A program made the translations under genes and the position numbers. This document shows, piece after piece, positions 6,267 to 61,858 of a stretch of 64,000 nucleotides of DNA (within the stretch, counting starts at the first letter, position 1; every line of letters starts with the position of its first letter). This DNA comes from an uncultured Bacilli bacterium (lineage in GTDB: Bacteria; Bacillota_I; Bacilli_A; RF39; UBA660). The stretch covers positions 2,992 through 66,991 of the forward strand of contig CAKPKR010000003.1 in assembly GCA_934167465.1 (NCBI GenBank). Direction: 5' to 3'. The notes under the pieces were generated by a model that saw only the letters and a program-made list of their open reading frames with translations, was not told the DNA's origin and did no database searches.

Positions 6267-7382
6267 ATGAAAAAAAGATACTTGTTTTTAATAATTTTTA
6301 TAATAATATTGTTGATACCTATAATAGTTATCAATATACCAAAAAAAGAAATAAAACCAATTGTTACTAATAATACTAATAGTTTTATCAAGAAAAATAT
6401 TAAGCTAAATTCTAATGATGACATTAATGTTAATGATTTTATTATTGATTTAAAACATAGTACTAATAGTTTATTTAATAATAATTTAGATGTATTTAAA
6501 GATTGGAAATTAAAAATTACTGATTGTTTTAATAATGAAGTTAAATTAACAACTATTTATCTAGATGAAAGTAATTCAGTTATTTCTAAAGAAGAGGCAA
6601 TTATAAATGATGAATTAAAAGAAGGTATAAAAGAAAAAAATATTTTACCTAAATCAGGAAAATATAATGTTCAAATAACTAATAATAAAAATAAATTTAA
6701 TACAACAATTACAATTATTGATAATGAAAAACCAATTTTAAAACTAAAAGAAATAACTATTAAAGAAGGAGAAGAAGTTAATATTAATTCATTTATAGAA
6801 AGTTGTACGGATAATAGTTATAGTTGTTCCAATTTAAAATTAACTAATTATGAAAAATTACCAACTGAAATTGGTGAATATGAATTAGAATTTGTAATTC
6901 AAGATATAAATGGAAATATAAGTGACCCTGTTAAGACAAAATTTAAAATTGAAAGTAAATATTCTTATACACCTAGTTACTCAAATGATAACTATACCCC
7001 AGCTCAAAATTCTTATGATAGAAGTAATCCAATAGTTAATAAAGCTCTTTCATTAGTAGGTTCATCTGGACTTTGTAGTGAGATAGCAGAAGCATCAATA
7101 AATACTATTGGTAAAACAGCTTGGTTAGAAGAAAATTTTGGAGGAATTACACTTCATTCTTTAACACCAGAAAATTTCCTAAAAATAGGCTATGAAGTTG
7201 GAATTAATTCAGTTCAACCTGGTGATATTTTATATTATGCAAATGGTGGCTTCGGTAGTTCACATGTTGCTATATATATTGGTAATGGTAATGCAGTTCA
7301 TGGTAATTTTAATGGAATAACTGTTATCTATTCAATGTATGTTCCAGGTGCATCTAATCCTAGAGTAATTAGAATAAATTAA
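6267..7382 (+). CDS. secreted NlpC/P60-family (CHAP-like) cell-wall hydrolase
   Basis: The protein has a signal anchor. The C-terminus has a Cys (SGLCSEIA) ... His (SSHVAIYIGNGNAVHG) arrangement typical of NlpC/P60. Confidence 0.5.
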   Translation: MKKRYLFLIIFIIILLIPIIVINIPKKEIKPIVTNNTNSFIKKNIKLNSNDDINVNDFIIDLKHSTNSLFNNNLDVFKDWKLKITDCFNNEVKLTTIYLDESNSVISKEEAIINDELKEGIKEKNILPKSGKYNVQITNNKNKFNTTITIIDNEKPILKLKEITIKEGEEVNINSFIESCTDNSYSCSNLKLTNYEKLPTEIGEYELEFVIQDINGNISDPVKTKFKIESKYSYTPSYSNDNYTPAQNSYDRSNPIVNKALSLVGSSGLCSEIAEASINTIGKTAWLEENFGGITLHSLTPENFLKIGYEVGINSVQPGDILYYANGGFGSSHVAIYIGNGNAVHGNFNGITVIYSMYVPGASNPRVIRIN

Positions 7383-10054: not shown

Positions 10055-11698
10055 ATGAAAAAAGGATTTACATTAATAGAATTATTGGCAGTAATAGTGA
10101 TATTGGCAGTAATAGCATTAATCGCAACACCAATAATATTAAATGTAATAGAAGAATCAAAAAAGGGAGCCGCTGAACAATCAGTAATCGGATATGTAAA
10201 CGGAATAGAGAATAATGTTTTAGTATCAGAATTGGATAATAGTTCTATAGAAGATGGAAGTTACAATATAAATGAAATAGAAGTAGAAGTAAAAGGAAAT
10301 AAACCTGATAGTGGGAATATAACAATAGAAAAAGGAATAGTAGTAGATGCAGTAATGTGTATGAGTGGATATAAAGTAATATATTCAAATAGTAAAGCGG
10401 AAGTCCAAGGAAAATGTGAAGGAAATCTAGTATATAGTGAAGGTATTTTAAATGGAACAGATCCAGTATTAGGTGAAAATATGATACCAGTAACAATAGA
10501 AAAAGATGGAACAGTAAAATATGCAGATATAAATAAGAAATGGTATAGTTATGGAAATAAAGAATGGGCAAATGCAGTAATATTAAATACAAGTAATAGT
10601 TATAATGTAGGAGATATAATACCAGAAAGTGAAATAGAATCATATTTTGTGTGGATACCAAGATATAGATATAAATTATTTAATGTAGATAATACAAGTA
10701 AAGATTCAAAAACATATACAAATTATAAAGATATACCAAGTAAAGCAGAGGAAATAGAAATAGTATTTGAAAATAAAGAAACAAAAATAAGTAACGGAAA
10801 TAAAAATGGTGAATATTTAATGCATCCAGCTTTTACATCATTTGAAAGTAATGGAATGTGGGTAGGAAAATTTGAAACAGGATATAAAGGAGCAACAACT
10901 ACTTCAACAGCTCAAGTAAACTCAAATGATTCTACAAAAGTAATAGTTAAACCAAACGTTTATAGTTGGAGAAGTATAACAGTAGGAAATATCTTTTTAA
11001 CAAGTTATAATTATAAAAGAGATTTGGATTCACATATGATGAAGAATACCGAATGGGGAGCAGTAGCATATCTTTCACATTCAAAATATGGAATAAATAG
11101 TGAAGTAAGAATAAATAATAATAGTGCACATATAACAGGTTATGCAAAGACTGAACAACCAACTTGTGGTTGGACAAATAGTAATGAAGAATGTAATAAG
11201 TTTGAAAGTACGGCTTTAAATCAAGATGGAACATATACAAAAAGATATAATACCGAAATTGGATATTTAGCAAGTACAACAGGAAATATAACCGGAATCT
11301 ATGATATGAGTGGCGGATCTAATGAATATATGGCAGCCTATATGGCAGGACAACTAGGAAATAGTGGACTAATACCAACCGATTATGATTCAAAATATTT
11401 TAATGTATATAATTCATCAAGTACAGTAACAAGTTATCAATATCGCATCTTAGGAGATGCAACTGGAGAAATGGGACCATTTACAAATTTAAAATCAAGT
11501 GGAAGTGATGGAGACAAAACCTCATATGCATCAAGTTGGTATGCCGACCGTTCGAACTTTGTTGACTCTGGTAGCCCTTGGTTCAACCGAGGCGGCGATT
11601 ACGGCCATGGTGTAGTTGCAGGTCAGTTCAACTTCCTTAGGAGCCCGGGTGGTACTTACAGTTACGTTGGCTTCCGCCTAGTTTTAACACCTCAATAA
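10055..11698 (+). CDS. type IV prepilin-like N-terminus fused to an FGE-sulfatase/DUF1566-like domain protein (paralog B1)
   Basis: MKKGFTLIELLAVIVIL is a class III prepilin signal: G then F, with E at +5. The middle and C-terminal parts, TEWGAVAYL, GIYDMSGGSNEY, RGG...VGFRLV, resemble the FGE-sulfatase fold. Confidence 0.6.
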   Translation: MKKGFTLIELLAVIVILAVIALIATPIILNVIEESKKGAAEQSVIGYVNGIENNVLVSELDNSSIEDGSYNINEIEVEVKGNKPDSGNITIEKGIVVDAVMCMSGYKVIYSNSKAEVQGKCEGNLVYSEGILNGTDPVLGENMIPVTIEKDGTVKYADINKKWYSYGNKEWANAVILNTSNSYNVGDIIPESEIESYFVWIPRYRYKLFNVDNTSKDSKTYTNYKDIPSKAEEIEIVFENKETKISNGNKNGEYLMHPAFTSFESNGMWVGKFETGYKGATTTSTAQVNSNDSTKVIVKPNVYSWRSITVGNIFLTSYNYKRDLDSHMMKNTEWGAVAYLSHSKYGINSEVRINNNSAHITGYAKTEQPTCGWTNSNEECNKFESTALNQDGTYTKRYNTEIGYLASTTGNITGIYDMSGGSNEYMAAYMAGQLGNSGLIPTDYDSKYFNVYNSSSTVTSYQYRILGDATGEMGPFTNLKSSGSDGDKTSYASSWYADRSNFVDSGSPWFNRGGDYGHGVVAGQFNFLRSPGGTYSYVGFRLVLTPQ

Positions 11699-11730: not shown

Positions 11731-11889
11731 ATTTAAAAATTATCAACATTTATTTTTAAATTATATTTAATAAATTTGTCGAAATTTATATGTTAAAAAG
11801 TGAATGAAAAAAAGCAAAAATGTAGTAAAATATAAAGCGATATATTTAATTGGTGTTGGTGCATTCCTCCATTATGAGGAGGTGGTATT

Positions 11890-11967
11890 ATGTCTAAAAG
11901 AGAAATTTCCTTTTTCATTATAATACTTCTATTATTTTTTATAATAATTACTTTATTATATAGATAA
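11890..11967 (+). CDS. 25-aa hydrophobic peptide MSKREISFFIIILLLFFIIITLLYR (candidate type I toxin)
   Basis: A strong Shine-Dalgarno sequence, GGAGGTGG, lies inside a CCTCC...GGAGG hairpin. The ORF is conserved in three copies. Confidence 0.5.
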   Translation: MSKREISFFIIILLLFFIIITLLYR

Positions 11968-12082
11968 TAAAATAAGCACTATCACAGGGGGTAGTGCTTT
12001 CTAAATACAATTTGGAATGTATCTAACTCTATCAACAATTAGATATATCCTTTTTTTATTGTATGAGTAATAACTCATCTAT
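11968..12082 (-). ncRNA. predicted antisense sRNA (candidate antitoxin)
   Basis: A minus-strand promoter, TTGAAA-17-TAATAT, is at 12115-12087. The transcript would terminate at the hairpin AGCACTATC...GTAGTGCT plus a T-run, reading in the minus orientation. Confidence 0.4.
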
Positions 12083-12220
12083 ATACATATTAACATTTTT
12101 AAAATATTTTTTCAATAATATTTTAAAATAATTTATAAATGAAATTTTTTATAATTTAATAAGAAATATTGATATATGTTTTTCATCCATTTTATGGTAA
12201 AATAATAATTGGTGGTAAGA

Positions 12221-22914: not shown

Positions 22915-23045
22915 ATAATACTTTTTTTTGTCGGAATTTGTATGTTAAAAAATGGATAAACAAAAACTAAAATGTAGTAGAATATAAAGCGATATATTTA
23001 ATTGGTGTTAGTGCATTCCTTCTAGAATAAGAAGGCGGTGATATT

Positions 23046-23123
23046 ATGACAAAAAGAGAAATATCTTTATTTTTAATAATAATTCTATTATTTGTTATAA
23101 TTTTTATTTTATTATATAAATAA
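23046..23123 (+). CDS. 25-aa hydrophobic peptide MTKREISLFLIIILLFVIIFILLYK (candidate type I toxin)
   Basis: The Shine-Dalgarno sequence AGAAGGCGGTG is sequestered in the hairpin CCTTCT-agaata-AGAAGG. Confidence 0.5.
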   Translation: MTKREISLFLIIILLFVIIFILLYK

Positions 23124-23236
23124 AAAAATGCACTATCACAGGGGGATAGTACTAACTAAAAAACCATTTAGGAATGTATCTAATTTTTAGAACAATTAGA
23201 TATATCCTTTTTTAATTATATGGGCATTACTTATCT
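23122..23236 (-). ncRNA. predicted antisense sRNA (candidate antitoxin)
   Basis: The minus-strand promoter has TTGAAA at 23271-23266, a 17-nt spacer and TATTAT at 23248-23243. A terminator hairpin at 23130-23152 is followed by an A-run on the plus strand. Confidence 0.4.
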
Positions 23237-23336
23237 ATATACATAATAACATTTTAAAAATATTTTTTCAATAATTTTATGTAATTTACGAATATAAACA
23301 AAATAGACTTTTTAACAAAAATTTGATACAATTTTA

Positions 23337-32407: not shown

Positions 32408-32438
32408 TTGACAAAAACGTCTGGGGGGGGGGTATGAT
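32408..32438 (+). promoter_or_regulatory. poly-G promoter of A1: TTGACA, spacer with G10 at 32423-32432, TATGAT
   Basis: The spacer is 19 nt. The homopolymer lies exactly between the -35 and the -10. Confidence 0.7.
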
Positions 32439-33032: not shown

Positions 33033-33063
33033 TTGACTTTTACGTCTGGGGGGGGGGTATGAT
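33033..33063 (+). promoter_or_regulatory. poly-G promoter of A2: TTGACT, spacer with G10 at 33048-33057, TATGAT
   Basis: The spacer is 19 nt. Confidence 0.7.
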
Positions 33064-33661: not shown

Positions 33662-33691
33662 TTGACTTTTACGTCTGGGGGGGGGTATGAT
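33662..33691 (+). promoter_or_regulatory. poly-G promoter of A3: TTGACT, spacer with G9 at 33677-33685, TATGAT
   Basis: The spacer is 18 nt. Confidence 0.7.
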
Positions 33692-40574: not shown

Positions 40575-40775
40575 TTCTATTTTTTTTTATATATTAGGAA
40601 AGTGCTTCCAAATTTTAAAAAAAAATATATGTTCTATTAAAAAAACTTTCTAAATTTTTGTCAGAATTTGTATGTAAAAAAAAAGATGAAAATAATAAAA
40701 AATATAGTAGAATATAAATCGATATATTTAATTGGTGTTAGTGCATTCCTTCTAGAATAAGAAGGTGGTGATTTT

Positions 40776-40853
40776 ATGACAAAAAGAGAAATATCTTTAT
40801 TCTTAATAATAATTCTATTATTTGTTATAATTTTTACTTTATTATATAAATAA
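40776..40853 (+). CDS. 25-aa hydrophobic peptide MTKREISLFLIIILLFVIIFTLLYK (candidate type I toxin)
   Basis: The Shine-Dalgarno sequence AGAAGGTGGTG lies in the hairpin CCTTCT-agaata-AGAAGG. Confidence 0.5.
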   Translation: MTKREISLFLIIILLFVIIFTLLYK

Positions 40854-40967
40854 AAAAATTGCACTATCACAGGGGGGATAGTGCATTCGCAAAACAAATT
40901 AGGAATGTATCTAACTCTTTAGACAATTAGATATATCCTTTTTTATTGTATGAGCAATAACTCATCT
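40854..40967 (-). ncRNA. predicted antisense sRNA (candidate antitoxin)
   Basis: The minus-strand promoter has TTGAAA at 41002-40997, a 17-nt spacer and TACTAT at 40979-40974. It terminates at the hairpin GCACTATC-acaggggg-GATAGTGC at 40861-40884. Confidence 0.4.
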
Positions 40968-41053
40968 GTATACATAGTAACATTTTAAAAATATTTTTTC
41001 AATAATATTATAAAATAAATTGCAAAATTTTAAAACGCGAACAAAATTTCTGC

Positions 41054-41083
41054 TTGACTTTTACGTCTGGGGGGGGGTATGAT
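41054..41083 (+). promoter_or_regulatory. poly-G promoter of A4: TTGACT, spacer with G9 at 41069-41077, TATGAT
   Basis: The spacer is 18 nt. The conserved upstream box is ACGCGAACAAAATTTCTGC. Confidence 0.7.
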
Positions 41084-41107
41084 AGTATTGGAAAGTAGGA
41101 ATTTATA

Positions 41108-42384: not shown

Positions 42385-42414
42385 TTGATTTTTACGCCTG
42401 GGGGGGGGTATAAT
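42385..42414 (+). promoter_or_regulatory. poly-G promoter of A5: TTGATT, spacer with G9 at 42400-42408, TATAAT
   Basis: The spacer is 18 nt. It has the same upstream box as A4 and A7. Confidence 0.7.
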
Positions 42415-52455: not shown

Positions 52456-52487
52456 TTGACTTTTACGTCTGGGGGGGGGGGTATGAT
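52456..52487 (+). promoter_or_regulatory. poly-G promoter of A6: TTGACT, spacer with G11 at 52471-52481, TATGAT
   Basis: The spacer is 20 nt. This is the longest tract in the window. Confidence 0.7.
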
Positions 52488-61437: not shown

Positions 61438-61790
61438 TATGTCGGAATTCGTATGTAAAAAATTAGATAAGAAAAATTAAAAATATGGTAGAATATTAAT
61501 CGATATATTTAATTGGTGTTAGTGCATTCCTTCTATAATAAGAAGGAGAGGTGGTCGTTATGAAAGAAAGAGAAAAACTCTATTCTTAATAATCTTCCTA
61601 CTATTATTTATAGTAATTATATTACTTTATAAATAAAAAAATGCACTATCACAGGGGGATAGTGCTTTCAAAACTTTTGGAATGTATCTAACTCTGAACA
61701 ATTAGATATATCCTTTTTTATTGTATGAGTAATAACTCATCTATATACATAGTAACATTTTAAAAAAATTTTTCAATAATATTATAAAAT
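61438..61790. repeat. type I toxin-antitoxin-like repeat, copy 4, with a disrupted peptide frame
   Basis: It has the same unit structure. The ATG at 61560 gives only MKEREKLYS before a stop. The LIIFLLLFIVIILLYK tail is in another frame. Confidence 0.65.
61560..61636 (+). pseudogene. frameshifted remnant of the 25-aa peptide gene
   Basis: See the repeat feature above. The hairpins and the antisense promoter, TTGAAA at 61776-61771, are retained. Confidence 0.5.
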
Positions 61791-61827
61791 AAATTGCAAG
61801 AATTTAAAACGCGAACAAAATTTCTGC

Positions 61828-61858
61828 TTGATTTTTACGCCTGGGGGGGGGGTATAAT
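61828..61858 (+). promoter_or_regulatory. poly-G promoter of A7: TTGATT, spacer with G10 at 61843-61852, TATAAT
   Basis: The spacer is 19 nt. It has the same upstream box, ACGCGAACAAAATTTCTGC. Confidence 0.7.

Follow-up and report, generated by a model that had tools for sequence, protein, structure and literature searches.

What is the purpose of an intergenic unit of about 365 bp that recurs four times, always on the plus strand, in 64,000 nucleotides of an uncultured Bacilli bacterium? The stretch in question (assembly GCA_934167465.1, contig CAKPKR010000003.1, positions 2,992 to 66,991 of the forward strand; hereafter the window) had been read in a preliminary description as carrying complete type I toxin–antitoxin systems, each with a small hydrophobic peptide, a convergent antisense promoter, and paired terminators. 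All the anatomical elements listed there are present in the units, and most of them gain support when 17 full copies, drawn from four or more related genomes, are compared. The units are probably chromosomal type I toxin–antitoxin-like modules with the 3′-overlapping, convergent design of bsrG/SR4, and a credible case can be made, from sequence comparison, for a previously undescribed family of this known kind.

Repeat finding and alignment (repeat families D3, D7, and D10) place copy 1 at 11775–12138, between a prepilin-like gene and mutS (nhmmer E values of 1e-89 to 4e-99; alignments A1 and A2; flanking genes from Pfam), and copy 2 at 22927–23292, between clpC-like and trmB-like genes. Copy 3 (40657–41026) follows divIVA and lies directly upstream of a gene with a poly-G tract in its promoter, while copy 4 (61438–61800) follows a gyrB/parE-like gene and also lies upstream of a poly-G promoter gene. 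The number and strand of the copies are as first described; the unit length of 350 bp is refined to about 365 bp, and the starts given as 22928 and 40655 move to 22927 and 40657 (those at 11775 and 61438 are kept). An nhmmer profile built from the four copies scores them at E = 1e-89 to 1e-105 and finds no fifth unit in the window. At the 5′ edge of each unit stands a 19-nt block, TTTGTCGGAATTTGTATGT, with four occurrences against 0.03 expected, all of them confined to the units (11775–11793, 22927–22945, 40657–40675, and 61438–61456). Its position, about −63 to −45 from the toxin promoter, could be that of an UP element or a regulator binding site; inspection by eye of the upstream conserved block revealed no convincing LexA (Cheo) box.

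The candidate toxin is encoded by an open reading frame (ORF) of exactly 25 codons in 16 of the 17 full copies, which starts with ATG or GTG (GTG in a tandem array described below) and is preceded, 5–8 nt upstream, by a Shine–Dalgarno (SD)-like GGAGGTG, GGCGGTG, or GGTGGTG. The peptide follows a common pattern, with a charged head (M-x-x-R-E-x-x), a hydrophobic helix of 17–18 L/I/F/V residues, and a C-terminal (Y/F)(K/R), and both its length and its pattern are retained in the divergent copies L034 and L038. Across codons 2–25 the variable columns number 15, 9, and 20 at the first, second, and third positions, respectively, and the synonymous share of pairwise codon differences is 36% versus 21% expected. 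Intact copies show no indels in the ORF, while the neighboring spacers have many. In the window, copy 1 (ORF 11890–11967, plus strand) encodes MSKREISFFIIILLLFFIIITLLYR, copy 2 (23046–23123, plus strand) encodes MTKREISLFLIIILLFVIIFILLYK, and copy 3 (40776–40853, plus strand) encodes MTKREISLFLIIILLFVIIFTLLYK. The charged-head, single-helix character of the 25-amino acid peptide is thus as originally proposed, but the sequence quoted for it, MTKREISLFLIIILLFVIIFILLYK, had been attached to copy 1 and belongs to copy 2. An intact ORF was also claimed for every unit, which holds for only three of the four: the ORF region of copy 4 (61560–61636, plus strand) contains a previously overlooked frameshift and reads MKEREKLYS*, the hydrophobic part having moved to the +1 frame. 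The A5 run at 61573–61577 is A6 in the intact relatives L013, L005, and L018, and the frameshift may mark a pseudogene, an assembly error in the homopolymer or, conceivably, a site of slippage.

Each unit carries promoters on both strands. The plus-strand promoter consists of aTGAaA or ATAAAA, 16 nt, and then TAGAAT, TAAAAT, or TATAAT, and 5 of 17 copies add a TG extension; the window copies have TAGAAT or TAAAAT, in keeping with the weak promoter first proposed. The motif GATATAT starts 6–7 nt past the −10 box and should therefore be the 5′ end of the mRNA. On the minus strand, a stronger promoter lies 60–70 bp past the mRNA terminator. Its elements (TTGAnn-17-TGnTAnnAT) are kept in all 17 full copies, with a spacer of 16 nt once, which supports the near-consensus TTGAAA-17-TATTAT noted at the outset; the window copies read TTGAAA-17(16)-TAATAT/TATTAT/TACTAT with the TG extension. 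All four bases occur after the TG, and L016, L034, and L038 have spacers that bear no relation to the rest, so that conservation acts on the promoter elements themselves. Eight nucleotides (GTATA[TC]AG) separate the minus-strand −10 box from a 6-bp hairpin. The combination of a weak toxin promoter with a strong antitoxin promoter is the usual arrangement in type I systems.

From these promoters, an mRNA of 214–227 nt (shorter than the 250 nt or so first estimated) and an antisense RNA of 103–116 nt (close to the estimated 110 nt), made of three hairpins and a U-run, are predicted. The two would be convergent, as had been recognized, with the antisense RNA perfectly complementary to about 85–90 nt of the mRNA 3′ untranslated region (UTR), from the first hairpin after the ORF (hairpin 1) to the mRNA terminator. 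The predicted tail of the antisense terminator ends at the stop codon region, so the overlap is essentially restricted to the 3′ UTR. In T1TAdb, type I systems are defined by an mRNA of 150–400 nt, a usually hydrophobic peptide of 20–60 amino acids, and an antisense RNA of 60–200 nt (PMC8594479); the sequence-level predictions for the units, including the hydrophobic 25-amino acid peptide of 16 of the 17 copies, lie within these ranges.

In copy 1, the predicted mRNA spans 11838–12057 on the plus strand (−10 box TAAAAT at 11826–11831, 5′ clamp block at 11839–11852, SD hairpin at 11866–11882, hairpin 1 at 11976–11997, terminator at 12014–12057). Its predicted antisense RNA covers 11968–12080 on the minus strand (−35 box 12115–12110, −10 box 12092–12087, 5′ hairpin 12078–12063; fold z = −4.0) and would end in the reverse of hairpin 1 plus a U-run. 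The corresponding mRNAs of the other copies are predicted on the plus strand at about 22990–23213 in copy 2 (hairpin 1 at 23130–23152, terminator at 23171–23213), about 40720–40944 in copy 3 (hairpin 1 at 40861–40884, terminator at 40902–40944), and about 61501–61719 in copy 4 (hairpin 1 at 61643–61665, terminator at 61679–61719). Their antisense RNAs are predicted on the minus strand at 23122–23236 in copy 2 (TTGAAA-17-TATTAT at 23271–23243; terminator hairpin 23152–23130 followed by T7, called by a terminator scan), 40853–40967 in copy 3 (−35 box 41002–40997, −10 box TACTAT 40979–40974; three hairpins, z = −5.5), and 61635–61742 in copy 4 (−35 box 61776–61771, 16-nt spacer, −10 box TACTAT 61754–61749).

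Local RNA structure agrees with this map. The SD sequence is occluded by a hairpin of 5–7 bp (CCTTCT/AGAAGG, or CCTCC/GGAGG in copy 1), as had been claimed. After the ORF comes hairpin 1, GCACTATC..GATAGTGC, which is present as described; the perfect form originally quoted is that of copy 3, and copy 1 lacks one base of the 3′ arm. Read on the minus strand, hairpin 1 and its T-run form the antisense terminator, and the scan called it in copy 2 with the T7 already noticed. The proposed plus-strand terminator, GGAATGTATCTAA..TTAGATATATCC followed by T6–7, is likewise present; it was missed by the consensus scan because of its loop of 10–12 nt and a bulge, and it forms in span-limited folding. 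The copy 2 mRNA folds at −55.3 kcal/mol (z = −5.9 versus shuffles), and three antisense RNAs share the same three hairpins and U-run, with z = −4.0 to −6.1 versus shuffles.

In a 17-sequence alignment (A3), 96% of the cells of the four local helices are paired. Compensatory double changes affect one pair in the SD hairpin, one in hairpin 1 (A-U to G-C in L038), and two in the antisense 5′ hairpin (in L034 and L038), and L034 has an unrelated perfect hairpin, CTAACGCTTA..TAAGCGTTAG, in place of hairpin 1. The closing pair (pair 6) of the antisense 5′ hairpin is C·A on the plus strand and U·G on the minus strand in five copies, and a G·U pair of the terminator is valid on the plus strand only; this wobble asymmetry assigns the hairpins to their strands. 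Copy 2 is peculiar in its antisense 5′ hairpin (23220–23234), where two transitions give G·U pairs on the plus strand and A·C mismatches on the minus strand, against the trend of the other copies, and may destabilize its antisense RNA.

A further feature, new with respect to the preliminary description, is a predicted clamp between the two ends of the mRNA. The 5′ end, GATATATTTAATTG, complements the 3′ arm of its own terminator, CAATTAGATATATC, over 14 bp with one G·U (replaced by G-C in L034, L038, and L018); the 5′-UTR block that follows, TTAGTGCA, complements the 5′ arm of hairpin 1. In minimum free energy and partition-function folding, the clamp helix has P ≥ 0.95 in all 17 copies, and the clamped fold lies 10.6–16.9 kcal/mol below the best local fold (pairs spanning ≤70 nt, terminator hairpin kept). 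The duplex between 5′ and 3′ UTRs amounts to −34 to −41.5 kcal/mol, with z = −3.9 to −5.4. In L034 both partners of the second helix have changed, the 5′ UTR (AGCGTTAG versus CTAACGCT) along with hairpin 1, and yet remain complementary in a shifted register, which makes this the sole clamp helix with an informative change. When the 3′ UTR is blocked in the model, to mimic the antisense RNA, the paired fraction of the 5′ end falls from about 1.0 to 0.2–0.6.

These features suggest how the module could work. On thermodynamic prediction, the first 14 nt of the released mRNA would anneal to the 3′ arm of the terminator, and the next 5′-UTR block with the 5′ arm of hairpin 1, so that the message would be closed as a 5′–3′ clamp with the SD sequestered. 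By analogy with bsrG/SR4 and txpA/RatA, an abundant antisense RNA would bind the 3′ UTR, possibly beginning at complementary G5/C5 loops. In the main group of copies, the loop of hairpin 1, ACAGGGGG, forms the sole G/C-rich run of the unit and faces CCCCCUGU in the loop of the antisense terminator, and we infer that these loops act as a kissing site. By the same analogy, a long duplex would then form for RNase III, the mRNA 5′ end would be expelled from the clamp, and the message would be degraded untranslated. Should the antisense RNA fall, the stable clamped mRNA would eventually be translated and the peptide would damage the membrane.

The distribution of the unit was followed beyond the window, where 15 further copies were found: 13 full or partial ones in two related gut metagenome-assembled genomes (MAGs) and one metagenome, and two divergent ones in relatives. 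The source organism has a G+C content of 25% in the window, and its nearest public genome is CAKOTA01, a MAG labeled “uncultured Bacilli bacterium”. Sporulation genes are present in its relatives, and proteins of the window are matched in Hadza and other human-gut metagenome assemblies by exact-protein look-up. A 20-mer from the 5′ UTR was scanned across 185,579 genomes, and copies appeared in two species representatives, the CAKOTA MAG (at least eight) and the CAZXOH MAG (at least five); further matches in Fischerella (L006) and Lachnospiraceae (L014) were discarded as chance matches inside genes. A two-block 3′-UTR pattern found only two contigs in the metagenome scan. The neighborhoods of GH31 and PNPase orthologues in relatives were scanned with nhmmer, which yielded the divergent copies L034 (95 bits) and L038 (182 bits; identical to L039).

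Three units form a head-to-tail tandem array with a 350-bp period in the CAKOTA MAG (L016, 5785–6849; CAKOTA010000006.1). All three have a GTG start, and their antisense promoter spacer is unrelated to that of the dispersed copies. Multiple copies, including this triplet, speak for the toxin–antitoxin interpretation, as tandem copies are common for type I loci. The sites occupied by the unit also differ between close relatives by presence or absence. In about 130 kb of loci from more distant relatives (L035–L037 and L040–L044; GH31 identity ≤80% or PNPase identity 92–97%), nhmmer detected no unit, so the family is either narrow or fast-diverging; on the sequences scanned, it is restricted to a narrow clade. 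Two scans of viral contigs gave only chance matches, and blastn against plasmids and phages returned nothing meaningful.

Several points weigh against a toxin–antitoxin function. No known family of toxins or antitoxin RNAs in Rfam, Pfam, or NCBIfam is homologous to the units: Rfam gave no match for the whole window at the gathering score and only noise for one unit at E up to 10, while six peptide variants searched in Pfam and NCBIfam at E up to 10 matched no toxin family and gave no more than weak, spurious matches to SNARE and to the pheromone inhibitor Ipd. Ten peptide variants were also absent from 15 billion proteins by exact look-up. Hydrophobic ORFs (runs of I, L, and F) arise easily in an AT-rich genome, and one copy, copy 4, is frameshifted. 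The SD is predicted to be paired at 0.5–0.86 in the clamped mRNA and stays paired when the 3′ UTR is blocked in the model, even rising from 0.49 to 0.71 in copies of the copy 2 type; its accessibility barely shifts, so the model does not demonstrate translational control by the antisense RNA. The clamp helix and the terminator are nearly invariant (12 of 14 and 10 of 12 pairs never vary), so that covariation neither supports nor refutes them. The clamp also competes with the terminator hairpin, and a kinetically trapped RNA may never form it. Finally, the family is shallow and relatedness alone can exceed the shuffle control, which makes the counts of pair changes supportive rather than decisive.

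Among other explanations, the one that survives best, improbable as it is, takes the unit as the gene of a harmless small membrane protein (such as a regulator or a membrane-complex subunit) tuned by a cis-antisense RNA. The coding and antisense signatures would fit such a protein equally well, and the failure of the peptides to match any toxin family is in its favor. However, the at least eight and at least five paralogues per genome in the CAKOTA and CAZXOH MAGs, the tandem arrays, and the presence or absence between close relatives are what type I toxin loci typically show, and a small housekeeping protein would seldom behave in this way. The stacking of several layers of repression (weak promoter, locked SD, clamp, and strong antisense promoter) is, moreover, the hallmark of a product that is not to be made, and one copy reads as a pseudogene.

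It is very unlikely that the unit is instead a non-coding intergenic repeat of the BOX/RUP/REP type, acting as a bidirectional terminator or an insulator that perhaps shields the downstream phase-variable promoters, with the ORF as an AT-rich by-product. What invites this explanation is that every copy follows a plus-strand gene and two are closely followed by a poly-G promoter, that the RNA hairpins are more conserved than the ORF, and that AT-rich DNA readily encodes I/L/F runs. But a by-product would hardly keep an invariant length without indels, a start codon (even through a change from ATG to GTG), and a strong SD 5–8 nt upstream, nor would its second codon positions be the most conserved and its synonymous changes in excess. 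The unit also conserves promoters of its own on both strands, and among the upstream genes divIVA, for example, is already served by a terminator of its own. A miniature inverted-repeat transposable element, or the end of a larger mobile element as the preliminary description had allowed, is scarcely credible despite the multiple copies, the variable sites among relatives, and the conserved 14-bp inverted repeat GATATATTTAATTG/CAATTAGATATATC, and this alternative was rejected: the conserved unit continues past the repeat for about 65 bp on the upstream side and about 75 bp on the downstream side, so that the repeat is internal rather than terminal, no target-site duplication is visible at the four borders, the flanks are unrelated housekeeping genes with no transposase, and the phage and plasmid collections contain no match.

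The genes of the window lie nearly all on the plus strand and include PNPase (a protein of 721 amino acids), mutS, a clpC-like gene, trmB, divIVA, and a gyrB/parE-like gene. Seven poly-G tracts (G9–G11) occur at 32423–32432, 33048–33057, 33677–33685, 41069–41077, 42400–42408, 52471–52481, and 61843–61852, each in the 18–20-nt spacer between TTGAC(T/A) as the −35 box and TATGAT or TATAAT as the −10 box. Each tract is followed, about 30 nt downstream, by a small ORF; these ORFs are paralogues with a common conserved N-terminal region and no Pfam match, and three of the genes form a tandem array at 32.4–34.2 kb. The tracts look like slipped-strand, phase-variable promoters of a family of surface or secreted proteins. 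The unit and the abutting poly-G promoter region have been duplicated together (40997–41084 and 61771–61858; repeat D5, 93% identity). At 6985–7020 of L038, the antisense −35 box (TTGATT, minus strand) overlaps the −35 box of a poly-G promoter (TTGACA, plus strand) in a back-to-back divergent arrangement, and the two promoters might influence each other.

A broader reading of the units is tentative, and we consider it possible rather than probable. One segment of the 3′ UTR would serve as terminator, dock for the 5′ end, and antitoxin target at once, and the antitoxin would mainly compete with the 5′ end for the terminator arm, unlocking a protective clamp rather than only making an RNase III site. 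Beside a poly-G promoter, the overlapping divergent −35 boxes could then couple antitoxin transcription to the phase state of the neighboring surface-protein gene.

Two other traits of the lineage were observed along the way. Large proteins that carry a prepilin-type N-terminal methylation motif (N_methyl) occur frequently and vary (window 10055–11698; loci L035, L036, and L041), and they often adjoin the variable cassettes. The gene order near conserved genes (PNPase, mutS, and GH31 among them) differs even between relatives with 93–94% protein identity.

Type I systems easily escape detection, since the peptides are too short for gene-calling thresholds and the RNAs diverge quickly. The units would contribute a so far unannotated family, from a gut lineage of Bacilli that is uncultured, very AT-rich, and probably spore-forming, with a 25-amino acid toxin candidate among the shortest, and they suggest that such modules are recognizable from the raw sequence alone. 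Given the clean RNA architecture and the at least eight copies in a related MAG, clamp release of the bsrG type by a 3′ antisense RNA would become testable in a second, unrelated system. The practical yield would be modest: a seed alignment for Rfam or T1TAdb, and a compact pair of peptide and RNA for synthetic regulation.

How do the units compare with what is already known? The known type I families come from cultured Proteobacteria, Firmicutes, and Tenericutes (PMC12390103). The likeness to Fst, TxpA, and BsrG originally drawn holds for geometry and design; no sequence homology to any of the three was found, so the resemblance is not one of family membership. With par (Fst/RNAII) of Enterococcus and SprA1/SprA1as of Staphylococcus, the units share a Gram-positive setting, convergent RNAs with a 3′ overlap, and a sequestered toxin SD. 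Those antitoxins act where they complement the 5′ region of the toxin mRNA, beyond the overlap (PMC8594479), and such a trans contact was rejected for the units, whose antisense RNA is no more complementary to the 5′ UTR than shuffled controls are (z = +0.8 to −2.3). The two terminators of the unit are also separate, unlike those of par and SprA1, which are shared.

In hok/Sok and aapA1/IsoA1, a long-distance 5′–3′ interaction locks the full-length mRNA and sequesters the SD, as part of a layered post-transcriptional control (PMC5416894). Both the locking and the layering recur, as predictions, in the units. In those systems, however, the antisense RNA overlaps the 5′ or initiation region and activation requires 3′ trimming, whereas the antisense RNA of the unit would target the 3′ partner of the clamp, from a promoter placed beyond the mRNA terminator.

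The antisense RNA overlaps the mRNA 3′ end in txpA/RatA and yonT/SR6 of B. subtilis as well, whose toxins are longer (58–59 amino acids) and unrelated in sequence. An RNase III-sensitive duplex is the expected route of repression (PMC3531473, PMC5848175), and by analogy we infer RNase III dependence in the units. In the BsrE-G-H, TxpA, and YonT systems the antisense RNA also overlaps the ORF (PMC8594479), while in the unit the overlap reaches beyond the 3′ UTR no further than the stop codon region.

The closest parallel is bsrG/SR4, together with bsrE/SR5 and bsrH, where convergent RNAs overlap at their 3′ ends and the peptide is a small single helix. The units are chromosomal and multicopy with no prophage genes seen around them in the window, while bsrG resides in a prophage-like region. 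Their peptide has 25 amino acids versus 38 in BsrG, their antisense RNA about 110 nt versus 183 in SR4, and no sequence similarity links the two. Structure probing of the bsrG mRNA paired nt 1–35 with nt 232–262 (helix P1) and placed the SD in a 4-bp helix; on binding of SR4 at the 3′ end, after a first loop–loop contact, nt 1–33 became single-stranded and the SD helix was extended to 8 bp (PMC3834814). In the unit, the 5′ end is predicted to pair with the 3′ arm of the terminator itself, and not with a segment upstream of the terminator as in bsrG. Otherwise the correspondence extends through each predicted step: a structured mRNA with its 5′ end paired to a 3′ segment and its SD in a short helix, an antisense RNA made of independent stem-loops ending in a terminator, and a binding event at the mRNA 3′ end that would set the 5′ end free.

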